From positions 1-30,338 of IMG/VR virus record IMGVR_UViG_3300036856_000108: 30,338 nucleotides of DNA. One strand, 5' to 3'. Both the position numbers and the translations under genes were made by a program. Shown in pieces: positions 17,859 through 30,338 of the stretch. Source of the stretch: a virus. Lineage: Duplodnaviria > Caudoviricetes. Each line of letters begins with the position of its first letter. Position 1 is the first letter of the stretch. A model generated the notes under the pieces. It did not search any database and was not told the DNA's origin. It saw nothing but the letters and a program-made list of their open reading frames with translations.

Positions 17859-19631
17859 ATGAACGACAACAACGGCATGACACTCATCAGCGACCCGCGC
17901 AGAAAGGCCGCCCTGCTTTACTGGCAGGGATTTTCCGTGGCGCGAATCGCGGAAACGCTCGCCCTTAAAAAACCGACGGTGCAAAGCTGGAAACAGCGGG
18001 AGAAATGGGATGCCGTCGCGCCGATTTCCCGCATTGAAACCAGCATTGAGGCGCGCGTCGTCCAGCTCGTGATGAAAAGCAAAAAAGACGGGCAAGACTT
18101 CAAAGAAATCGACCTGTTAGGCCGCCAGATTGAGCGACTGGCGCGGGTGAACCGCTACATGTCGACGGGCAGCGAGGCGGATCTCAATCCGGCGGTTGCG
18201 AACCGCAACAAAGGGGAACGTAAAAAGGTAGAAAAAAACGTCTTCACCGATGAGGCGATCGCCAAACTCAGCGACGTGTTTATCGACGATGCGTTTGAGT
18301 ACCAACTCGGCTGGCATCAGGCGGGTTTACAGCACCGTATCCGTAACATTCTAAAATCCCGTCAGATTGGCGCGACCTTCTTCTTTGCCCGCGAGGCGCT
18401 GCTCGACGCGCTGAAAACCGGACGTAACCAAATCTTTATTTCGGCCAGCAAGTCGCAGGCGCACGTCTTTAGAAATTACATCATCGACTTTGCCCGGCTG
18501 GTTGATGTTGACCTCAAAGGCGACCCGATGCAGCTCGCGAACGGCGCGCGCCTGTTCTTTCTCGGCACCAACATCCGCACCGCGCAGAGCTACACCGGTA
18601 ACCTGTATCTGGATGAGTATTTCTGGATCCCCAAGTTTCAAGAGCTGCGCAAAGTCGCCTCGGGGATGTCGCTGCACAAGAAATGGCGAACGACCTATTT
18701 CTCGACCCCTTCCAGCCTGACCCACAGCGCCTATTCGTTCTGGTCGGGAGAGCTATTTAACAAGGGGCGTCGTAAAAAAGACGAGCGTATCCAGCTCGAC
18801 CTCAGCCACAGCCATTTAGCCCAAGGCGTGCAGTGTGCCGACGGCCAGTGGCGGCAGATTGTGACGGTGGAGGATGCGCTCGCGGGCGGCTGCGATCTGT
18901 TCGACATCAACCAGCTTTCGCTGGAATACAGCCCGTCGGAATATCAGAACCTGCTCATGTGTGAGTTTGTGGATGATAAGGCGTCGGTCTTCCCGTTCGA
19001 GGAGTTGCAGGGCTGCATGGTGGACAGTCTCGAAGAATGGACGGATTTCAATCCCTACGCTTTCCACCCGTTCGACGACAAGCCGGTGTGGATTGGTTAC
19101 GACCCGTCCGAGGCCAACGGCGGCGACAGCGCCGGTTGCGTGGTGATTGCCCCGCCGGAGCAGCAGGGCGGCATCTTCCGCATTCTGGAACGCCACCAGT
19201 GGCAGGGCATGGATTTTGACGCGCAGGCGAAGGCTATCGAGGCGCTGACGGAAAAATATAACGTGGAATATATCGGCATTGATGCGACCACCGTCGGTCA
19301 GGGTGTTTACCAGCTCGTCCGGCAGTTTTTCCCCGCGGCGCGCGAAATCAAATACACGGCGGAATTAAAAACCGAGATGGTGCTGAAAGCCAAAAACACC
19401 ATTCATCGCGGCTGCTTGCAGTACGACGCGGGTCATAGCGACATCACCGCCGCATTTATGGCTATTCGCAAAACCATGACGGCCAGCGGCGCAAAGTCCA
19501 CCTATGTCGCCAGCCGCAGCGAAGAAGCCAGCCACGCCGACGTGGCGTGGGCGACGATGCACGCGCTCATCAATGAGCCGCTGACGGCGGGTTCCGGCAA
19601 GCAATATAAATCCACCATTGAATGGCACTAA
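17859..19631 (+). CDS. P: Terminase large (ATPase) subunit gpP
   Basis: ILKSRQIGATF Walker A, LYLDEYFW Walker B, WIGYDP nuclease motif; start 17859 or 17877. Confidence 0.95.
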   Translation: MNDNNGMTLISDPRRKAALLYWQGFSVARIAETLALKKPTVQSWKQREKWDAVAPISRIETSIEARVVQLVMKSKKDGQDFKEIDLLGRQIERLARVNRYMSTGSEADLNPAVANRNKGERKKVEKNVFTDEAIAKLSDVFIDDAFEYQLGWHQAGLQHRIRNILKSRQIGATFFFAREALLDALKTGRNQIFISASKSQAHVFRNYIIDFARLVDVDLKGDPMQLANGARLFFLGTNIRTAQSYTGNLYLDEYFWIPKFQELRKVASGMSLHKKWRTTYFSTPSSLTHSAYSFWSGELFNKGRRKKDERIQLDLSHSHLAQGVQCADGQWRQIVTVEDALAGGCDLFDINQLSLEYSPSEYQNLLMCEFVDDKASVFPFEELQGCMVDSLEEWTDFNPYAFHPFDDKPVWIGYDPSEANGGDSAGCVVIAPPEQQGGIFRILERHQWQGMDFDAQAKAIEALTEKYNVEYIGIDATTVGQGVYQLVRQFFPAAREIKYTAELKTEMVLKAKNTIHRGCLQYDAGHSDITAAFMAIRKTMTASGAKSTYVASRSEEASHADVAWATMHALINEPLTAGSGKQYKSTIEWH

Positions 19632-19632
19632 T

Positions 19633-20646
19633 ATGACCAGCAAAAAATCACGCAAGGCCAAGAAATTCACCTCGACCAACAACGTGCAGCAGAGCGAGTT
19701 TTTCCGCTTTGATGAACCGGCAAAGGTCATGGATCGCCGCGACATTTTAAATTACGTGGAGTGCATCAGTAACGGGAAGTGGTACGAGCCGCCGGTCAGC
19801 TTCTCGGGGCTGGCAAAGAGTATGCGCGCCGCCGTGCATCACAGCTCGCCGATGTACGTCAAACGTAACATTCTCGCCAGCACCTTTATCCCGCACCCGC
19901 TGCTTTCACAACAGCAGTTTAGCCGCTATGCGCTGGATTATATTGTCTTTGGTAACGGATTTATGGAGCAGCGCAGAAGCCGCACCGGCCAGCTATTAAG
20001 GCTTGAAACCTCACCGGCGAAATATACCCGTCGCGGTTTAGAAGATGACGTCTTCTGGTTCGTGGAAAACTACGCCGCGCCGCACGATTTCGCCGCAGGA
20101 ACCGTTTTCCATTTGCAGGAGCCGGACATTAACCAAGAGCTGTACGGCCTGCCCGAATACCTCAGCGCGTTAAACAGCGCGTGGCTTAATGAGTCCGCGA
20201 CGCTGTACCGCCGCAAGTATTTTGAGAACGGCGCGCACGCGGGCTACGTGATGTACGTGACCGACCCCGCCCAGAACAAAGAGGATATTTCGGCACTGCG
20301 CGACATGATGAGCAAATCGAAGGGCGACGGGAATTTCAGAAACATTTTTTATCACGCGCCGAACGGCAAACCGGACGCGATTAAAATCATCCCGCTCAGT
20401 GAAGTGGCAACCAAAGATGATTTCTTTAACATCAAGAACGCGACCCGCGACGACCTGCTCAGCGTGCATCGCGTGCCGCCACAGATGATGGGGATTATCC
20501 CAAGCAATACCGGCGGATTTGGTGACGTTGAGAAAGCGGCAAAGGTGTTTGTGCGTAACGAGCTGGTACCGCTACAGGAGCGGATGAAGGAATTAAACCA
20601 GTGGGCCGGTCAGGAGGTGATCCGCTTTACGGACTACGAATTATAA
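19633..20646 (+). CDS. Q: Portal protein gpQ
   Basis: KWYEPPVSF.GLAK..RA..HHSS..YVKRN...DINQE.YGLPEY...HRVPPQMMG. Confidence 0.96.
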   Translation: MTSKKSRKAKKFTSTNNVQQSEFFRFDEPAKVMDRRDILNYVECISNGKWYEPPVSFSGLAKSMRAAVHHSSPMYVKRNILASTFIPHPLLSQQQFSRYALDYIVFGNGFMEQRRSRTGQLLRLETSPAKYTRRGLEDDVFWFVENYAAPHDFAAGTVFHLQEPDINQELYGLPEYLSALNSAWLNESATLYRRKYFENGAHAGYVMYVTDPAQNKEDISALRDMMSKSKGDGNFRNIFYHAPNGKPDAIKIIPLSEVATKDDFFNIKNATRDDLLSVHRVPPQMMGIIPSNTGGFGDVEKAAKVFVRNELVPLQERMKELNQWAGQEVIRFTDYEL

Positions 20647-20666: not shown

Positions 20667-20691
20667 AGCCGCCTGATATGGCGGCTTTTTT
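20667..20691 (+). terminator. Rho-independent terminator after Q
   Basis: AGCCGCC-6 nt-GGCGGCT stem followed by TTTTT. Confidence 0.85.
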
Positions 20692-20831
20692 ACGCCTGCG
20701 CTCTAAGGCCGTGAGACGCACGACACGCCGCGAAAGCCTGAACGCACGCCAATATCGGGCGGGGATTCGAAAACCTCACCACGGCGCGCTCAGGCGCGGG
20801 AATAAATACCTAAAAACAGCCCCCGCGCGCA

Positions 20832-20850: not shown

Positions 20851-21033
20851 TGCCCGCTTTATGTGTCGCTTTTAATGCAGTTGTATTTATCTGTTTTTTC
20901 AACCAACGCCTACCTTTACATGTAAATTAAATAAGATTTATTTTGATGCAAAACCATGCAGCCGCATGCATCAGCTACAAATGGAAATTTCCATTACAAG
21001 CTGGGCGCGGCCTACTGGGAAAATAACTGTATA

Positions 21034-21062
21034 TTTACACATAAGTGATCAATTGACACAAT
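21034..21062 (+). promoter_or_regulatory. Putative sigma70 promoter of the accessory operon
   Basis: TTTACA-17 bp-CACAAT with extended -10 TG at 21054-21055. Confidence 0.5.
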
Positions 21063-21103
21063 TATGCTAAAAGTAGGTCTGCACACTACTTTTTACACAG
21101 CTA

Positions 21104-22531
21104 ATGGTATTTCTAATGGATAAAGAAATTATTGAGGCTTTTCCAGCCAAGCGCTTTTTTGTTGATATGCTGACCCGAGACATCGAACTAGAAGACGCTA
21201 TTTTAGACCTTTTAGACAACTGCTTAGATGGAGCTCTACGATGTATATCAAGTAGTGAGGAAGAAATTAATGAAGGAGAAAAATATAACAATTTCTTTTC
21301 ACGCATAAGTTTTGATGAAAATCATTTTTCCATTGAGGATAATTGTGGTGGTATTTCAGGCGATTTAGCAACAGATTATGCATTCCGCCTAGGCAGGCCA
21401 AATGAACGTAAGGGTGAAAAAATACCAACAATAGGTATTTATGGAATTGGTATGAAACGTGCCATTTTCAAAATGGGAACATCCGCAGACGTATTAAGTA
21501 AAACTGCCGACGAGCAATTTAAAGTATCAATTTCCCCTGAATGGATTTCTAGAGATGATCTGTGGGAACTCGAGCTAGAAAGAGAAAATATAGATCTGCC
21601 ATCCACTGGGGTGAAGATATTAATTGATACTTTAAGGGTGGACGTAAGTAATGTTTTCCATAAAGATAGAGGATTCCAAGAAAAACTTATAACTGCCGTA
21701 TCAAATCACTACAGCGTAATACTAAGCAAAGGCTTTAAAGTATTTATTAATGATACTGAAGTAAAACCCAACCTGACAACACTTATAGTTGATGATAAGG
21801 CGTTAGGGGAAGGACATGGGGGCATAACACCTTATTTTTACAAGGGAGAAAGCAAAGGTGTTTCAATACAGATAGCTGTGGGTTTTTATAGAGATTTCGC
21901 CAGCGAAGATGAGGAAAACTCTATACTATCGGGCCGAAACACTACTGAAAAAGCAGGCTGGACAATTATATGTAATGACCGAGTTGTTCTATACGCAGAT
22001 AAAACTCGCCTCACCGGATGGGGAGAAGCGGGCGTTCCACAATATCACACACAGTTTATAGGCATTGCAGGTGTAGTTATATTTACCTCCGATGATGCAG
22101 AAAAGTTACCCATTACAACAACAAAGCGTGGAATAGATGGTAATTCCGACCTCTATTTAGCAACAAAAGACTTTATGCGCGAAGGTTTGAAAATGTTCAC
22201 AGATTTCACTAACCGGTGGAAAGGGAACTCTGAAGAAAAAAGAAAAATGTTTACTGATGCACCTAGAATGATGCCATTAGTGAACAATAAAGTTGAGAAT
22301 GTTGTACCCGACGACCAATGGTCGCGAGTCAATCGTTCAATTGGTGGTAACGCTTTCAAACCAAAACTTCCAATCCCTAGAGAAACGGATCCATTAAGAC
22401 AAATTAAATTCAACAGAAAGCTAAGTGATATAAAATTGGTTTCTGAGTTTATTTTTGATGATGATTCAATTGCTCCTACAGAAGTAGGTAACTACTGCTT
22501 TGAGGACTTTTTAAAGAGGGCTAAGGAATGA
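21104..22531 (+). CDS. GHKL (MORC/MutL-like) ATPase, accessory
   Basis: N-box DAILDLLDNCLD, G1 IEDNCGGI, G2 IGIYGIGMKRA, G3 TGVKI, S5-like GWTIICNDRVV; AT-rich; alternative start 21116. Confidence 0.85.
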   Translation: MVFLMDKEIIEAFPAKRFFVDMLTRDIELEDAILDLLDNCLDGALRCISSSEEEINEGEKYNNFFSRISFDENHFSIEDNCGGISGDLATDYAFRLGRPNERKGEKIPTIGIYGIGMKRAIFKMGTSADVLSKTADEQFKVSISPEWISRDDLWELELERENIDLPSTGVKILIDTLRVDVSNVFHKDRGFQEKLITAVSNHYSVILSKGFKVFINDTEVKPNLTTLIVDDKALGEGHGGITPYFYKGESKGVSIQIAVGFYRDFASEDEENSILSGRNTTEKAGWTIICNDRVVLYADKTRLTGWGEAGVPQYHTQFIGIAGVVIFTSDDAEKLPITTTKRGIDGNSDLYLATKDFMREGLKMFTDFTNRWKGNSEEKRKMFTDAPRMMPLVNNKVENVVPDDQWSRVNRSIGGNAFKPKLPIPRETDPLRQIKFNRKLSDIKLVSEFIFDDDSIAPTEVGNYCFEDFLKRAKE

Positions 22532-23520
22532 GTTCCGGTGGTAGTATCCCTTATCACTTAAGACAGCATAAAGCTGTGGAGAGGAACCTTTTCATTGAGT
22601 TATTAAGAAAACTTAATAACTACACTAATATATCTGATTATGTCTATATCGGATTTGGTGGTCCGTTCCTTGAGGATTTTAAGCAACTACATACTTCTTT
22701 AAAAATATGTAACATGATCTCTTTAGAAGTTGATAGCAATGTTCATAAACGACAGAGGTTCAACACACCGGTTTCTTGTATAGATATCGGAGAAGAGCCC
22801 AAAAGTAGTAGTGAATTCATTAATACTTATGACTTCGATAAACCTGCATTAATTTGGTTAGATTATGCTATCCCTAGTCAACTGAATGAGCAAATGAATG
22901 AAATTGCAAATTTGGTCAGCAAGTTAAAGCCAAAGGATATTTTCAAAATAACATTAAACGCCACACCTGAAACTTTAGGCAGAGACTATAGTAATCAGGA
23001 TCCTAAACCCTTCAGACTAGGTAAGTTGATTGAATTGCTAACTGAAGATTTTTGCCCAATAAATCCTGAAGTTGATGACGTCACTTTCAAGCGATATCCT
23101 AAATTGTTAATTAAAGCAGCACAGCGTGCGATTAACATGGGATTGAGAGGAAGAACTGATATACAAATACACCCTCTGTGTACTTTTATTTATAAAGATG
23201 GTCAGCAAATGATAACATTTACAGCCATTGTATTAGAAAATACTCCTGAAGAGTACGAACGATTTATTTCGGAATCAAGAATTACAAATTGGCCATTTTA
23301 TAGCGGGAGTTGGGATACGCTGAAAAACATTAGCATCCCAACCATGTCATTAAGAGAAAGAATATTCATTGAAGAAAAACTTCCATTAAATACAGCAGAT
23401 CAAATAAATGCGGACCTCGAATTTTTTCTTGGCGAAAATGAAAATGAAGCCCGTACGAATCTTGAAAATTTTATTGAGTATTACAAAGTAATTCCGTGGT
23501 ACTCGAAAGTTCTTTTTTAG
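22528..23520 (+). CDS. Putative SAM-dependent methyltransferase-fold protein
   Basis: YVYIGFGGPFLEDF Gly loop, MISLE (acidic end of beta2), ALIWLDY (beta4); ATGA overlap with the ATPase stop. ORF is secure, function tentative. Confidence 0.6.
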   Translation: MSSGGSIPYHLRQHKAVERNLFIELLRKLNNYTNISDYVYIGFGGPFLEDFKQLHTSLKICNMISLEVDSNVHKRQRFNTPVSCIDIGEEPKSSSEFINTYDFDKPALIWLDYAIPSQLNEQMNEIANLVSKLKPKDIFKITLNATPETLGRDYSNQDPKPFRLGKLIELLTEDFCPINPEVDDVTFKRYPKLLIKAAQRAINMGLRGRTDIQIHPLCTFIYKDGQQMITFTAIVLENTPEEYERFISESRITNWPFYSGSWDTLKNISIPTMSLRERIFIEEKLPLNTADQINADLEFFLGENENEARTNLENFIEYYKVIPWYSKVLF

Positions 23521-24622
23521 CCAAAAGGCAGTACTCAAATAATGGTAATAGCATGGCCTCAGCAACAAGGGGGCTAACGCTATTACCAATCTGTCTAAAA
23601 CTATGCCATTTGGTCGGATGAAATCTAAACCAGTCAGGAAAGCCCTGTAATCTTGCAGCTTCACGAGGTGTTATGACCCTCGCTTGAGTTGGATGAATGG
23701 GGCGAACTGCCTGATAGCTTCCTTTGTCACTTCCGGTACCAGCCCTCAACGTTGGGCAGAAACCATTAGGATTTAACCGCTGAGAACGTGAAATCTTGTC
23801 AGTTTCGCCGAATGACAATTTGTTATATCTATTAATTATTTCGTCATTGTGAACTGTGCCCAAGAAACCGGAAACTATACCTTCATTTAATTTATTAAGA
23901 GACTCAGCATCTCCAACTTTGTCAGGTATACATCCCCACAACCTATTAAAGTAATAACCCTCCCGATCTAATTTAACACGACGCCAACCTTGTTTCTCTT
24001 CTTGCCATTCTTTTTTTATAACACGAGGCAATCCATACAAAGCTTCCTTTACAAGAGTTTGTTCCATTATATCTTTTGGAAAAAAATCAGATTCTTTTAA
24101 CTGATTAGTAAAATCTTTTCTAAAACCAATAAAGAATATTCTGGTTCTTGTGGTAGGCGCACCGTAGTTTGATGCATTGACTTTTATCGGGTGTAATAGT
24201 GAATAACGATCACTCACTAAAGAGAACGCTTTTTCTCTCACGGAATTATATTTTTCATTCATAATTCCAGGGACGTTTTCAGCTAAAAAACAAATTGGAG
24301 ATAGTTCATTAACTAATCTAAAAAAATGAATATACAACTCATTTCTGGTGTCATCTGCGTCACCTTTCCCAATGGAGCTAAAACCTTGGCAAGGAGGCCC
24401 TCCAATAACGCAATCAATTTCACTAACATTACAAGTAGAGAGTATATCTCTAGCCGAGAGTTTACTCACATCTTTATGTAAGTGAGTTGATTTTGGGAAG
24501 TTTAAAGCATGGGAATAAATAGCATGTTTATCTAACTCAACAGCACCAGCCAAGTTGAAGCCTGCTCTTGTCGCCCCCAAGCTCAAACCGCCTACCCCTG
24601 CGAACAAGTCAATTACATTCAT
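23471..24622 (-). CDS. C5 DNA cytosine methyltransferase
   Basis: Motif I DLFAGVGG, IV GGPPCQGFS, VI ENV, VIII PTTRTR, IX REAARLQGFPD, X RQIGNSV. Confidence 0.95.
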   Translation of the reverse strand: MNVIDLFAGVGGLSLGATRAGFNLAGAVELDKHAIYSHALNFPKSTHLHKDVSKLSARDILSTCNVSEIDCVIGGPPCQGFSSIGKGDADDTRNELYIHFFRLVNELSPICFLAENVPGIMNEKYNSVREKAFSLVSDRYSLLHPIKVNASNYGAPTTRTRIFFIGFRKDFTNQLKESDFFPKDIMEQTLVKEALYGLPRVIKKEWQEEKQGWRRVKLDREGYYFNRLWGCIPDKVGDAESLNKLNEGIVSGFLGTVHNDEIINRYNKLSFGETDKISRSQRLNPNGFCPTLRAGTGSDKGSYQAVRPIHPTQARVITPREAARLQGFPDWFRFHPTKWHSFRQIGNSVSPLVAEAMLLPLFEYCLLAKKELSSTTELLCNTQ

Positions 24623-24683
24623 ATTTTTATAACCATGCTAAAAATCCAATTTATGATCTACGATCTTATCATTATTTTTCTTA

Positions 24684-26990
24684 TTAATTAAAGAAATCAT
24701 TAATTTCAAAGCTTGGCGACTCTATTAAATCAATTACATACGTAATTTTTTTCTCTTCATAACTTACTGTAGCGCCTCTCGCCAGCACTTCAAGCTCCCA
24801 ACGCTCAGGCGTAATGCCTTGGCTCACTAAATCTCTATAAATCCGCGGTACTTTAGCTCGCTCACTCTTCGTTAATCGCGCTGACGGGGCAAGCTCACGA
24901 GGTTTTGACGGATTAAAACTTTTTTGATGATGATTCACTGACGGCGATTGTCGTCTTACAGCGTCTCCCAGCACCTTAGCGACGTCTGGCTCATCCCATC
25001 CAACATTACCGCTCTCAACTAATTTCATCACCGCCGCGGCGTACTCAGAAGGTGTAGGAGGCAAACTCTGTCCGAGTCCTGTCTGAACCTCCCCACAGTT
25101 ATTGACAGGACTCCGAGGCGCGCCGAAGGCGCTTTTTAACGTCAAAGGATGAGGGGCAACGGCCACAGACTTAGCGACAATTTGCCATTGCGTTGTGCGT
25201 GTTTCATGGATACGGCCAGACCCGAGGTGCGGGGCAAAAATGCCGATAACCTTCTGGACTTCCTCGTCATATTCGTTGAGCTCGTCAATAACGTGGCGGG
25301 CCGTTCGCACGGTCTGCGTATCACGCGGAACATTCGCGCCGCCCTGTGCCGCCATGTACGCCGCAAAATCACCGGCATCCGCTGCGGCTCTCACCGCTTC
25401 TACAAGCTCGTCAAAGTCTGCGGACAGGCTAACGCCACGGATGCGTCGGCATTCGCGGTAAGCGCCCATGGTGGGAACGCCGATAGCTTTAAACTGAGGG
25501 ATGCGCCAGACCGAGGCCCACGCAGTAACAGCGGCGGCAGTGTCAGACAACGCCTGACCGGTTTCATGGTCGAGCTGGCCGTCTAGCGCGTAACCGTCGA
25601 TATTCTTCGCAATATATTTAGCGATGTAACCCGCCGCGCCGCCCTTGTTCAGGTGCTTGCACTCAAAGCGCTGGCTTTGCGCGCCGCGTTCGTCGCCGTC
25701 TTCTTTCAGCGCGTAGCTGCGCATAATGTCAATGACTGCCTGACGCTGAGACCGCTCGCAAAAAAGCATCATGTGCCAGTGCGGCGTGGCGTCGTGGTGA
25801 GGCTCAACAACGCGCATACCGTAGACTTTGAGCCCTTGGTCTTTAAACGCTGTGCGCATCTTGCCCCAGATTTTCACCAGATAGCGCTGGCCGTCTTTTG
25901 GCGAAAATGCCTCATCGTCCCAACGGTGATTGAAGTTAACGCGACGGTCTGATTTTTTACCGACCATTCGCGTGGGGTGATATTTCGACGGCGTGGTGAT
26001 GGTGAGAAACATCCCAACGTGCCCGACGCTGGCCGCATATTTTTCAATGCCGGCAATCGTGCTCATCAGCTCCATGCGGCGAATTTCAGGGTTAGAAATA
26101 CTCGCCAGAACCTTGTCGATAAGGTCGATGCGTTCGCCGGTGTCGACGTTCTCCAGTTCGCGGGATTTCAGGTATTCCATATTAGCCAGACGGCGGGCGC
26201 GTACGTCGCGGATTGCCTGCTTGCTGGCATAGCCTGATTTCTGCAAATTGACCTCACCGGCGGCAATTAGCAGGGATTCGCGCCACTGGGTGCGCTGCGC
26301 TTTAAGCTGACGAACCCACCACTCGTCGTTAACCAAACGAGCCACACTAGAAAATGCACAGCGCATGTCTAATTTATGTTTGCGGTATTTTTTCCAGTGC
26401 ATCGGGGTGATATTGAAAACCCGCGCGGCACCGGCAACGTGGCCGTAAATTTCTGACTGTTCAAGGTCTGTAAATAGCGCTTTCTGCTCGCCGTCGTTTG
26501 CCGCCAGAGCGTCATCGCTGCGGCTTTCGTACTCGACAAAGAGACGCGCAGCGATACGGGCAGCGAGCTTTTTCAGCTCTTTGTCATGCATACCCGCTAA
26601 ACCGCTATAACAATCAGCCTCATCACTAAAGAGCCTGAGTGAATTCTCATTAAATCTCAGCGCGAATTTATCGTTAACTAAAGCGATGCGCGGCCATATG
26701 CGCGGCATGAAAACGTTGATTAAGTAACGATGAGCCGTCAGCAGGCCCGAGGTTTTGAGCAGGTAAGCATGGCGGCCTGAGAAAATACCGCCGAGGAAAT
26801 TAGGCAGAGCGTCGATTTTGCGTAAGGCATCTTGCCCCTGACGGTATTCGTCACGGGTAAGAGGTCTCTCTTTAGAGATTGCTGGGCGCGGGGCATTCCA
26901 AGAAAAAGCGCCAACAAAGGGGGATTTGTCGGCGGCATTACATGGCGCTAATGGCGTGGGGGCTTTACGCCCCCGAGAATCAGCCTGCAC
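24684..26990 (-). CDS. A: Rolling-circle replication initiator gpA
   Basis: EPHHDATPHWH (HUH), AGYIAKYIAKNIDG (two Tyr), SISNPEIRRMELM; GTG start. Confidence 0.96.
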   Translation of the reverse strand: MQADSRGRKAPTPLAPCNAADKSPFVGAFSWNAPRPAISKERPLTRDEYRQGQDALRKIDALPNFLGGIFSGRHAYLLKTSGLLTAHRYLINVFMPRIWPRIALVNDKFALRFNENSLRLFSDEADCYSGLAGMHDKELKKLAARIAARLFVEYESRSDDALAANDGEQKALFTDLEQSEIYGHVAGAARVFNITPMHWKKYRKHKLDMRCAFSSVARLVNDEWWVRQLKAQRTQWRESLLIAAGEVNLQKSGYASKQAIRDVRARRLANMEYLKSRELENVDTGERIDLIDKVLASISNPEIRRMELMSTIAGIEKYAASVGHVGMFLTITTPSKYHPTRMVGKKSDRRVNFNHRWDDEAFSPKDGQRYLVKIWGKMRTAFKDQGLKVYGMRVVEPHHDATPHWHMMLFCERSQRQAVIDIMRSYALKEDGDERGAQSQRFECKHLNKGGAAGYIAKYIAKNIDGYALDGQLDHETGQALSDTAAAVTAWASVWRIPQFKAIGVPTMGAYRECRRIRGVSLSADFDELVEAVRAAADAGDFAAYMAAQGGANVPRDTQTVRTARHVIDELNEYDEEVQKVIGIFAPHLGSGRIHETRTTQWQIVAKSVAVAPHPLTLKSAFGAPRSPVNNCGEVQTGLGQSLPPTPSEYAAAVMKLVESGNVGWDEPDVAKVLGDAVRRQSPSVNHHQKSFNPSKPRELAPSARLTKSERAKVPRIYRDLVSQGITPERWELEVLARGATVSYEEKKITYVIDLIESPSFEINDFFN
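25102..25121 (-). other. Replication origin (gpA nick site) inside gene A
   Basis: GCGCCTCGGAGTCCTGTCAA, matching the P2 ori as I recall it, at the expected place in A. Confidence 0.85.
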
Positions 26991-29360: not shown

Positions 29361-30338
29361 ATGACAATTAAGAAGCTCGATGATGGTCAATATGAAGTGG
29401 ACATAAGACCTTGCGGACGCGAAGGACGTCGTTTTCGTAAGAAGTTTGGCAGGAAAGCCGAAGCTATCGCCTTTGAGCGATATGTGATGGCCAACGCGAA
29501 CAAAAAAGAGTGGGCAAACAAGCGAGCAGATCGCCGCCTGCTTAGCAAACTGATAGACATTTGGTGGCTTTACCATGGCCAAAATCTAAAAAATGGTGCT
29601 ATAGAAAAACGACACCTGATGAAAACGGTAACTGCTATCGGAGACCTAACGGTAAACCAGCTAAGTAAACGGGTATTAATGGAGCATCGCAGCCAGCGCC
29701 TAACCGACGGTATTAGCGCTGCCACTATAAATCGCGATCTTTATAGATTCTCAGGCATGTTTACAGCGTTGATAAAACTTGAAGAATTTTCAGGTCAAAA
29801 TCCGCTGCATGGTTTACCGCCTTTAGCTGAAAAAAATCCCAGCATGACGTTTTTAGATACAGACGAAATTAGTTCGTTGCTGACGGTTTTGAATGGAGAC
29901 GAAAGGCTTATTGCTTTGTTGTGCTTAAGTACCGGCGGTAGGTGGGGAGAAGTAAGTACCCTAACCCCAGCTCAAATAGCGAATAGTCGTGTAACATTTT
30001 TAGAAACTAAGAATGGGAAAAAACGCACGATTCCAATTTCGAAAGAATTGGAAGAGGAAGTGAAAAGTAAGGCAGGTGGGAAGCTCTTTAAAGTGGATTA
30101 CGAAAAATTCTGTATGAAGCTTAGAGATGTAAAGCCGGATCTGCCACGCGGTCAGGCGACCCATATATTACGGCACACTTTCGCTAGCCATTTTATGATG
30201 AACGGCGGGAATATAATTGCTCTTCAGCAAATCCTAGGACATGCCAACATCCAGCAGACAATGGCCTATTCCCACTTGGCACCCGACTATCTTCAAAACG
30301 CCGTTATACTCAATCCGTTAAAGGGGGGAGTTGGCTGA
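29361..30338 (+). CDS. int: Tyrosine integrase
   Basis: TGGRWGE, TKNGK, HILRHTFASHF, LGH..I..T..Y catalytic residues; GGAGGG SD. Confidence 0.96.
   Translation: MTIKKLDDGQYEVDIRPCGREGRRFRKKFGRKAEAIAFERYVMANANKKEWANKRADRRLLSKLIDIWWLYHGQNLKNGAIEKRHLMKTVTAIGDLTVNQLSKRVLMEHRSQRLTDGISAATINRDLYRFSGMFTALIKLEEFSGQNPLHGLPPLAEKNPSMTFLDTDEISSLLTVLNGDERLIALLCLSTGGRWGEVSTLTPAQIANSRVTFLETKNGKKRTIPISKELEEEVKSKAGGKLFKVDYEKFCMKLRDVKPDLPRGQATHILRHTFASHFMMNGGNIIALQQILGHANIQQTMAYSHLAPDYLQNAVILNPLKGGVG

Follow-up and report, generated by a model that had tools for sequence, protein, structure and literature searches.

Introduction

Prokaryotic operons encoding MORC and paraMORC proteins, that is, GHKL ATPases with an S5 domain and a MORC motif, were predicted to be restriction-modification (R-M) systems by Iyer et al. 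(2008, PMC2292703). Their neighbours include a cytosine methylase and Vsr, and some of them have another GHKL protein as well. The operons of that work are predictions only, and a helicase-less minority of the MORC and methylase neighbourhoods is named there. Here we describe a cassette of three genes at positions 21104-24622 of the IMG/VR virus record IMGVR_UViG_3300036856_000108, analysed over its whole stretch of 30,338 nucleotides (the window). It encodes a MORC-type GHKL ATPase, a protein of the family PF20553 (Methyltransf_35) with a methyltransferase fold, and a C5-cytosine DNA methyltransferase (C5 methylase). The cassette shares the ATPase architecture and the methylase with the operons of Iyer et al. 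and differs from them in having no helicase or endonuclease; in its available part, that paper does not mention the PF20553 protein, which is an obligate partner here.

The site of the cassette has also been described. The gpA-gpQ site of P2-like prophages was defined as a hotspot of anti-phage systems by Rousset et al. (2022, PMC9122126), and their Table S5A lists the trio at the same site, with WP_029401228 in 69 rows. Searching their cloned-systems file for the protein motif, or for methyl, MTase and ATPase as words, gave no match, and the trio was apparently not cloned in that study. Among other modification-linked or GHKL-containing defence systems, DISARM, Dnd (DndFGH/Pbe), Mza and Tiamat are comparable in kind, but neither the drmA/drmB/drmC core of DISARM nor the core genes of Dnd, Mza and Tiamat are present in the window; a trace match to MzaB (E 0.053, 11.9 bits against a cut-off of 850) stands in the block with no other Mza gene. 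Compared with Type II R-M systems, the cassette has a cognate methylase, and no nuclease family or fold was found in it, although the C-terminal parts were barely covered by that comparison.

The first-pass annotation of this DNA could match the combination to no named system. This holds for PADLOC and NCBIfam, where no named system was matched, but not for novelty as a whole: PF20553 is catalogued, the helicase-less MORC and methylase class was already predicted in 2008 and the trio was already listed in 2022. No paper was found for Methyltransf_35 or PF20553, nor any on the cassette, in a literature search, and Z2389 came up there in table mentions only; supplements and subscription journals may still name the cassette. 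What is added here are the Z2389 and Pf-phage copies, a Dnd-linked subtype, a predicted complex and an Asp in the N-box of the ATPase.

Results

The three open reading frames (ORFs), of 475, 330 and 383 amino acids (aa), are intact. The ATPase gene (21104..22531, + strand) encodes GHKL and S5 domains followed by a short conserved C-terminal domain; its start is likely at 21116, which gives 471 aa and is the start used by the database call and by the closest relatives. An ATGA at 22528-22531 joins its stop to the start of the PF20553 gene (22528..23520, + strand), which, judged by this overlap, is translationally coupled to the ATPase gene. The C5 methylase gene (23471..24622, - strand) is convergent with the pair, and its 3' end overlaps that of the PF20553 gene over 50 nt. 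From 21001 to 25000 the guanine and cytosine (GC) content is 0.35-0.42, whereas the DNA to the left and right has 0.50-0.58. The first-pass annotation had proposed exactly this arrangement, an AT-rich block in which an ATGA-coupled ATPase and 330-aa ORF face a complete C5 methylase, and all of it stands. It had also seen no PD-(D/E)xK, HNH, Vsr or helicase gene, and in scans of the three proteins no nuclease, Vsr or helicase family was matched.

The ATPase matches HATPase_c_3 (PF13589) in Pfam with an E-value of 1.8e-9, and its GHKL motifs D34-N35, D75-N-C-G-G79, G107-G110-G112 and G165 are 99-100% conserved across 70 sequences. Residues 281-291 fit the S5 motif GhXhhpXXRhl, which is specific to MORC proteins (Iyer et al. 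2008, PMC2292703), with G281, C286, N287 and R289 conserved at 97-100%. In the structural model (predicted local distance difference test, pLDDT, 87) an S5-fold domain follows the GHKL domain, and the MORC3 ATPase cassette aligns to residues 5-366 (root-mean-square deviation, rmsd, 3.9; 293 aligned). The leading fold matches (VIA) are tied between MORC3 (Z 19.9), SMCHD1 (19.2), GRP94 (19.1) and MORC2 (19.0), while a sequence search of the PDB gave weak matches only, to MORC3/MORC4 (E 0.025-0.042), and the Foldseek PDB result was filled by Hsp90 chains. The conserved motifs and the top fold match bear out the GHKL/MORC identity first assigned to this protein. Its last 60 residues follow a conserved strand-helix-helix pattern without an acidic catalytic set, and only two residues of this tail, a Gly and a Phe, are invariant. 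A ribbon-helix-helix tail was considered, since the pattern fits by eye and two helices are modelled, but it had no Pfam or PDB profile match and was not adopted.

The 330-aa protein is a full-length member of PF20553 (E 1.5e-83, 281 bits against a cut-off of 27, residues 3-328), a family with 1621 representatives at 50% identity. No PADLOC model matched it or the ATPase, no NCBIfam model matched the PF20553 protein, and the PDB sequence search returned no solved relative of it. Its model (pLDDT 91) has a class I S-adenosylmethionine (SAM) methyltransferase fold with a C-terminal helical part. The top VIA matches are Tt1595 (Z 14.1, rmsd 3.2, 168 aligned) and Trm1 (Z 14.0, rmsd 3.9, 221 aligned), the latter spanning the longest stretch of the protein, residues 5-327; a viral fold library returned generic methyltransferases only. 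Across 83 sequences of 24-76% identity, K15, R19, Y40, G44, D50, R75, W110, D112, D224 and E277 are invariant, and the SAM-pocket residues G44, G45, E67 and D112, which include a Gly-rich motif I and an acidic motif II, are 95-100% conserved. Because residues remain invariant down to 24% identity, the SAM site is probably functional. Strand 4 is followed by Asp112-Tyr113, which resembles motif IV of amino-methyltransferases. The Rossmann-like fold noticed at first reading is thus a methyltransferase fold, by family, by structural match and by its SAM-pocket motifs. In the C-terminal part, E277 is the single invariant acidic residue. Partner residue 14 (window 22567-22569), inside a conserved N-terminal motif, is His in the window's clade and Asn in 178 of 185 locus matches. 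Neighbours of PF20553 in the ESM Atlas are mostly phage protein clusters (301-384 aa) together with PF28273, at scores of 0.91-0.93; these clusters are possibly phage-encoded PF20553 relatives.

The two proteins of the pair are predicted to bind each other. The predicted complex scored 0.64, against 0.00 for the best control, and the mark set for this score is one that 116 of 157 solved complexes attain, but only 2 of 215 mismatched pairs. At least 85% of the contacts recur between runs, with a partner pLDDT of at least 83. The PF20553 protein is predicted to bind the S5 domain of the ATPase through residues 95-104, 121-134 and 204-211.

This pairing is nearly fixed across genomes. The loci were all found via the PF20553 partner, in viral, GTDB and metagenome sets that overlap and are partly redundant; the ATPase gene lies directly upstream of the PF20553 gene in 53/54, 61/61 and 80/80 of them, respectively, and the sole viral exception sits at a contig edge. 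A search with the Pfam model gave nine further loci, all nine with the same order, one of them with a truncated ATPase. Co-occurrence in other genomes, the check named in the first-pass annotation, is therefore found for the pair in 194 of 195 loci, usually with a C5 gene adjoining. Where a locus extends 1.5 kb or more in both directions, the C5 gene is adjacent in 50/50 viral, 44/52 GTDB and 27/34 metagenome cases, counts that include one unrelated methylase (locus L024) and one containing a stop (L071). In the GTDB loci the C5 gene is upstream in 26, downstream and convergent in 15, and downstream and co-oriented in 6; because its position varies in this way, the convergent 50-nt overlap of the window is a local feature. 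Vsr adjoins the cassette in 19/61 GTDB loci. These features are as in R-M systems and their M genes.

In 7/61 GTDB and 10/80 metagenome loci, and in none of the 54 viral ones, there is a further GHKL protein whose tail is HEPN-like. It has 546-610 aa and an N-box Asp (L025, L028, L031, L037, L038, L040 and L062), and the HEPN-like tail of the four proteins scanned is either Ymh or similar to PD-Lambda-5_A.

The cassette is real and widespread. It is found in 256 of 5426 complete Escherichia coli genomes, and its presence is patchy, at about 1% of sampled genomes (5/301, 4/401 and 3/401 genomes, with the centre genome included in each count). All three genes are under purifying selection between L001 and L002 (dN, non-synonymous divergence, 0.02-0.04; dS, synonymous divergence, 0.83-0.96), which form the one unsaturated pair; many other dS values are saturated, and the ATPase comparison of L001 with L003, being out of register, was left out. 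In two copies (L020 and E. coli GF43) the PF20553 gene is broken while the methylase next to it is intact.

The trio is cargo of three unrelated temperate phage types: P2-like, Rac-like and filamentous. In E. coli O157:H7 EDL933, genes Z2386-Z2387-Z2389 (L214:7908-11407) repeat the trio and the layout of the window in CP-933R, a lambdoid Rac-like prophage; there the methylase is 64% identical to that of the window with a near-identical target recognition domain (TRD), whereas the pair is only 41% and 35% identical. By gene order and a table in PMC1890555, the methylase of this copy is likely Z2389, a gene that appears among those specific to lineage I (PMC1890555) and among those repressed by RpoS (PMC2907692). 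Pseudomonas phage PfAC20, a filamentous Pf phage, carries the trio in its accessory region, with all three genes in one orientation (L213:280-3711). The z2389 gene is said, in a 2010 report, to protect NotI sites.

The C5 methylase of the window matches DNA_methylase (PF00145) with E 3.2e-62 and TIGR00675 with 172.9 bits against a cut-off of 100.65, and PADLOC calls it a Type II MTase (MTase_II, E 4e-96). Its translation holds motifs I, IV (Pro-Cys) and VI (ENV) and a TRD. One TRD motif hardly varies between hosts as distant as enterobacterial phages, Planctomycetes and an archaeon, and three near-identical variants of it cover 114 of 140 intact trios; set against the EDL933 copy, the methylase is better conserved than the ATPase-PF20553 pair. 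The best match in each of five cyanobacterial genomes is 41-43% identical and has the TRD core in common, while the end of the TRD differs, so that the specificity may differ too. Type II R-M systems with CGATCG methylases (M.XorII, DmtC/M.Ssp6803I) are among the closest known systems, but the cassette has no endonuclease gene. DmtC is the common 5-methylcytosine (m5C) CGATCG methylase of cyanobacteria (Elhai 2015, PMC4390886). Because the TRD core is shared with the cyanobacterial matches and DmtC recognises CGATCG, the target is likely a CG-flanked hexamer, and the self mark may be m5C in such a hexamer, one belonging to the CGATCG family. Depletion of CGATCG was tried as a second indication of the target and rejected: a first set gave 17 sites of 45 expected in modules and 85 of 141 in control genes, and in a larger, de-duplicated set the control genes gave the same ratio, so depletion was not accepted as evidence.

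Some pairs stand without a C5 gene. Eight such GTDB loci have full flanks, namely five from cyanobacteria, two from Parabeggiatoa and one DISARM insertion, and three more cyanobacterial loci lack the gene. A related methylase is present elsewhere in the genome in 6/6 tested cyanobacteria with a C5-less pair, and in cyanobacteria the pair is retained by itself, surrounded by housekeeping genes. Another, divergent subtype is convergent to dnd phosphorothioation genes (L225:13-7267 and L231:5927-14944); the two genomes are of one order, their pairs are 41% identical, neither has a C5 methylase match, and the pair of L225 ends 7 bases from dndE. No match to this subtype was found in the viral scan. 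In L056 (239-12323) the pair lies inside a DISARM class 1-like operon, between the SNF2 helicase and drmA-drmB-drmC, with a drmMI-like ORF upstream; the Drm core is found in this one of 232 loci.

Further loci show other neighbours. In L024 (3916-8978) the neighbours of the pair are an endonuclease of the NotI family and another C5 methylase, which has 34% identity and a different TRD. L039 (8001-13706) has the pair twice, in convergent orientation and with 41% and 25% identity to the partner in the window; a single C5 methylase and an HNH-like protein lie between the two copies. The cassette adjoins Tn7-like/Tni genes (TnsD/TnsE, TniQ, TniB) in L038 (3434-11961), L028 (7048-8073) and L050 (2951-4302).

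In the window, the three genes are the sole genes between a P2-type portal gene on the left (19618..20646, + strand; PF04860, phrog_68) and a P2-type replication gene A on the right (24684..26990, - strand; PF05840, phrog_91). With an integrase at 29361, these family matches identify the window as a P2-like prophage. The cassette had been placed between cos and gene A in the P2 cargo hotspot: the hotspot position is confirmed by these flanks, which correspond to the gpA-gpQ site (PMC9122126), and so is the gene A border, while the left border is the portal gene and a cos site was not located. A terminator-like hairpin lies 3' of the portal gene (20667..20696, + strand), found by a consensus scan whose count was not above shuffles; promoter and terminator scans of the window were at chance level. 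In some P2-like relatives the stretch from the methylase to gene A also holds a DinI-like gene (L002, L010 (8221-8802)).

Discussion

The gene context makes it probable that the cassette is a phage defence of some kind. As to its mechanism, we tentatively favour, with a little less than even confidence, an R-M-like defence in which a MORC clamp delivers a methyltransferase to unmarked DNA without cutting it. The C5 methylase probably marks host and prophage DNA, putatively with m5C, and incoming DNA that lacks the mark would be acted on, but not cleaved, by the predicted complex of the ATPase and the PF20553 protein. GHKL/MORC proteins dimerise and clamp DNA, and the ATPase may do likewise; the PF20553 protein would then use SAM to methylate a base on the unprotected DNA, and this methylation would block phage replication or transcription. 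The division into a restriction arm and a modification arm is suggested by the fixed pair, the mobile and better-conserved methylase, the adjoining Vsr, the exchange of marks and the copies with a broken partner. Delivery of a methyltransferase by a MORC clamp is suggested because no nuclease is in view and the SAM pocket is conserved.

Several observations weigh against this reading. Asp31 occupies the catalytic position of the N-box in 176 of 176 motif matches; GHKL ATPases usually carry a catalytic Glu there, and the ATPase activity may therefore be low. For the PF20553 protein, many methyltransferases that act on RNA or small molecules tie as fold matches, which points to no single substrate, and the predicted interface residues are not above average in conservation (ATPase 0.56 against 0.56, partner 0.29 against 0.46). 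As for the target, CGATCG occurs at 0.48 of expected in modules and 0.45 in control genes across the de-duplicated set of 63 loci, and is abundant genome-wide in four of five carrier genomes and low in one. A strict dependence of the pair on the methylase is weakened by L071, in which a stop interrupts the methylase beside an intact pair, and by the two Parabeggiatoa genomes carrying the pair, in which, incomplete as they are, no C5 match was found. The cyanobacterial C5-less loci are not independent losses, since the named loci form one clade, and dndE is also present in 4/4 tested cyanobacteria with a C5-less pair. Finally, in those loci that have it, the GHKL-HEPN protein could be the true effector.

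The ATPase may instead be the effector, with the PF20553 protein only reading, by binding SAM or a DNA mark, and licensing a MORC clamp that would trap or compact unmarked DNA and so silence it without chemistry. Its top fold neighbours MORC3, SMCHD1 and MORC2 are silencing or compacting ATPases, pairing with marks as different as m5C and phosphorothioate suits a reader, and direct binding of the two proteins is predicted. However, the charged pocket residues K15, R19, D50, R75, D112 and D224 are invariant and look catalytic, and the N-box has Asp for Glu; we consider this explanation unlikely.

Improbable to us as well is an abortive-infection guard or addiction module, in which the pair would sense loss of the host mark or of SAM, for instance through a SAM-degrading enzyme of a phage, and arrest the cell, with the methylase as antidote. 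Abortive systems such as PARIS are frequent in the hotspot (PMC9122126), some GTDB and metagenome loci add the GHKL-HEPN protein, and the position of the pair within a DISARM operon and next to dnd clusters is one that a guard could take; yet all 54 viral loci do without the GHKL-HEPN gene, and the trio has no recognisable toxic domain. The chances are smaller for a modification or upkeep cassette outside defence, which would shield the element from host restriction or alter host methylation, with the pair as a second modifier or repair helper. Both recognisable enzymes have methyltransferase folds, Vsr often adjoins and the cyanobacterial pair stands alone among housekeeping genes, whereas the patchy presence, the low GC, the three unrelated prophage cargo sites and a pair that diverges faster than the methylase are not what such a cassette would lead one to expect. 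A cryptic restriction endonuclease in the C-terminal part of one protein, which the first-pass annotation had allowed for in the 330-aa protein, is very unlikely: fold searches barely covered the ATPase beyond about residue 375 and the partner beyond 252, and nucleases were predicted for most MORC operons (Iyer et al. 2008, PMC2292703), but the invariant residues of the ATPase tail are a Gly and a Phe, the partner tail has E277 as its one invariant acidic residue, and no nuclease family matched any of the three proteins.

Taking clamp-delivered methylation as the preferred reading, a wider and rather doubtful proposal is that the pair serves as a restriction arm without a nuclease, portable enough to work with m5C, phosphorothioate or DISARM methylation as the self mark. 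It would disable unmarked DNA by combining ATP-driven clamping with toxic methylation and would be a bacterial prototype of mark-guided MORC silencing. The literature search found no test of a helicase- and nuclease-free bacterial MORC form. At 3.5 kb and three genes, the cassette would be a simple model of how a DNA mark guides a MORC ATPase, and it lets one ask whether methylation itself can serve as a weapon. Given that it is common in E. coli, the cassette may shape phage host range and the methylome in this species.

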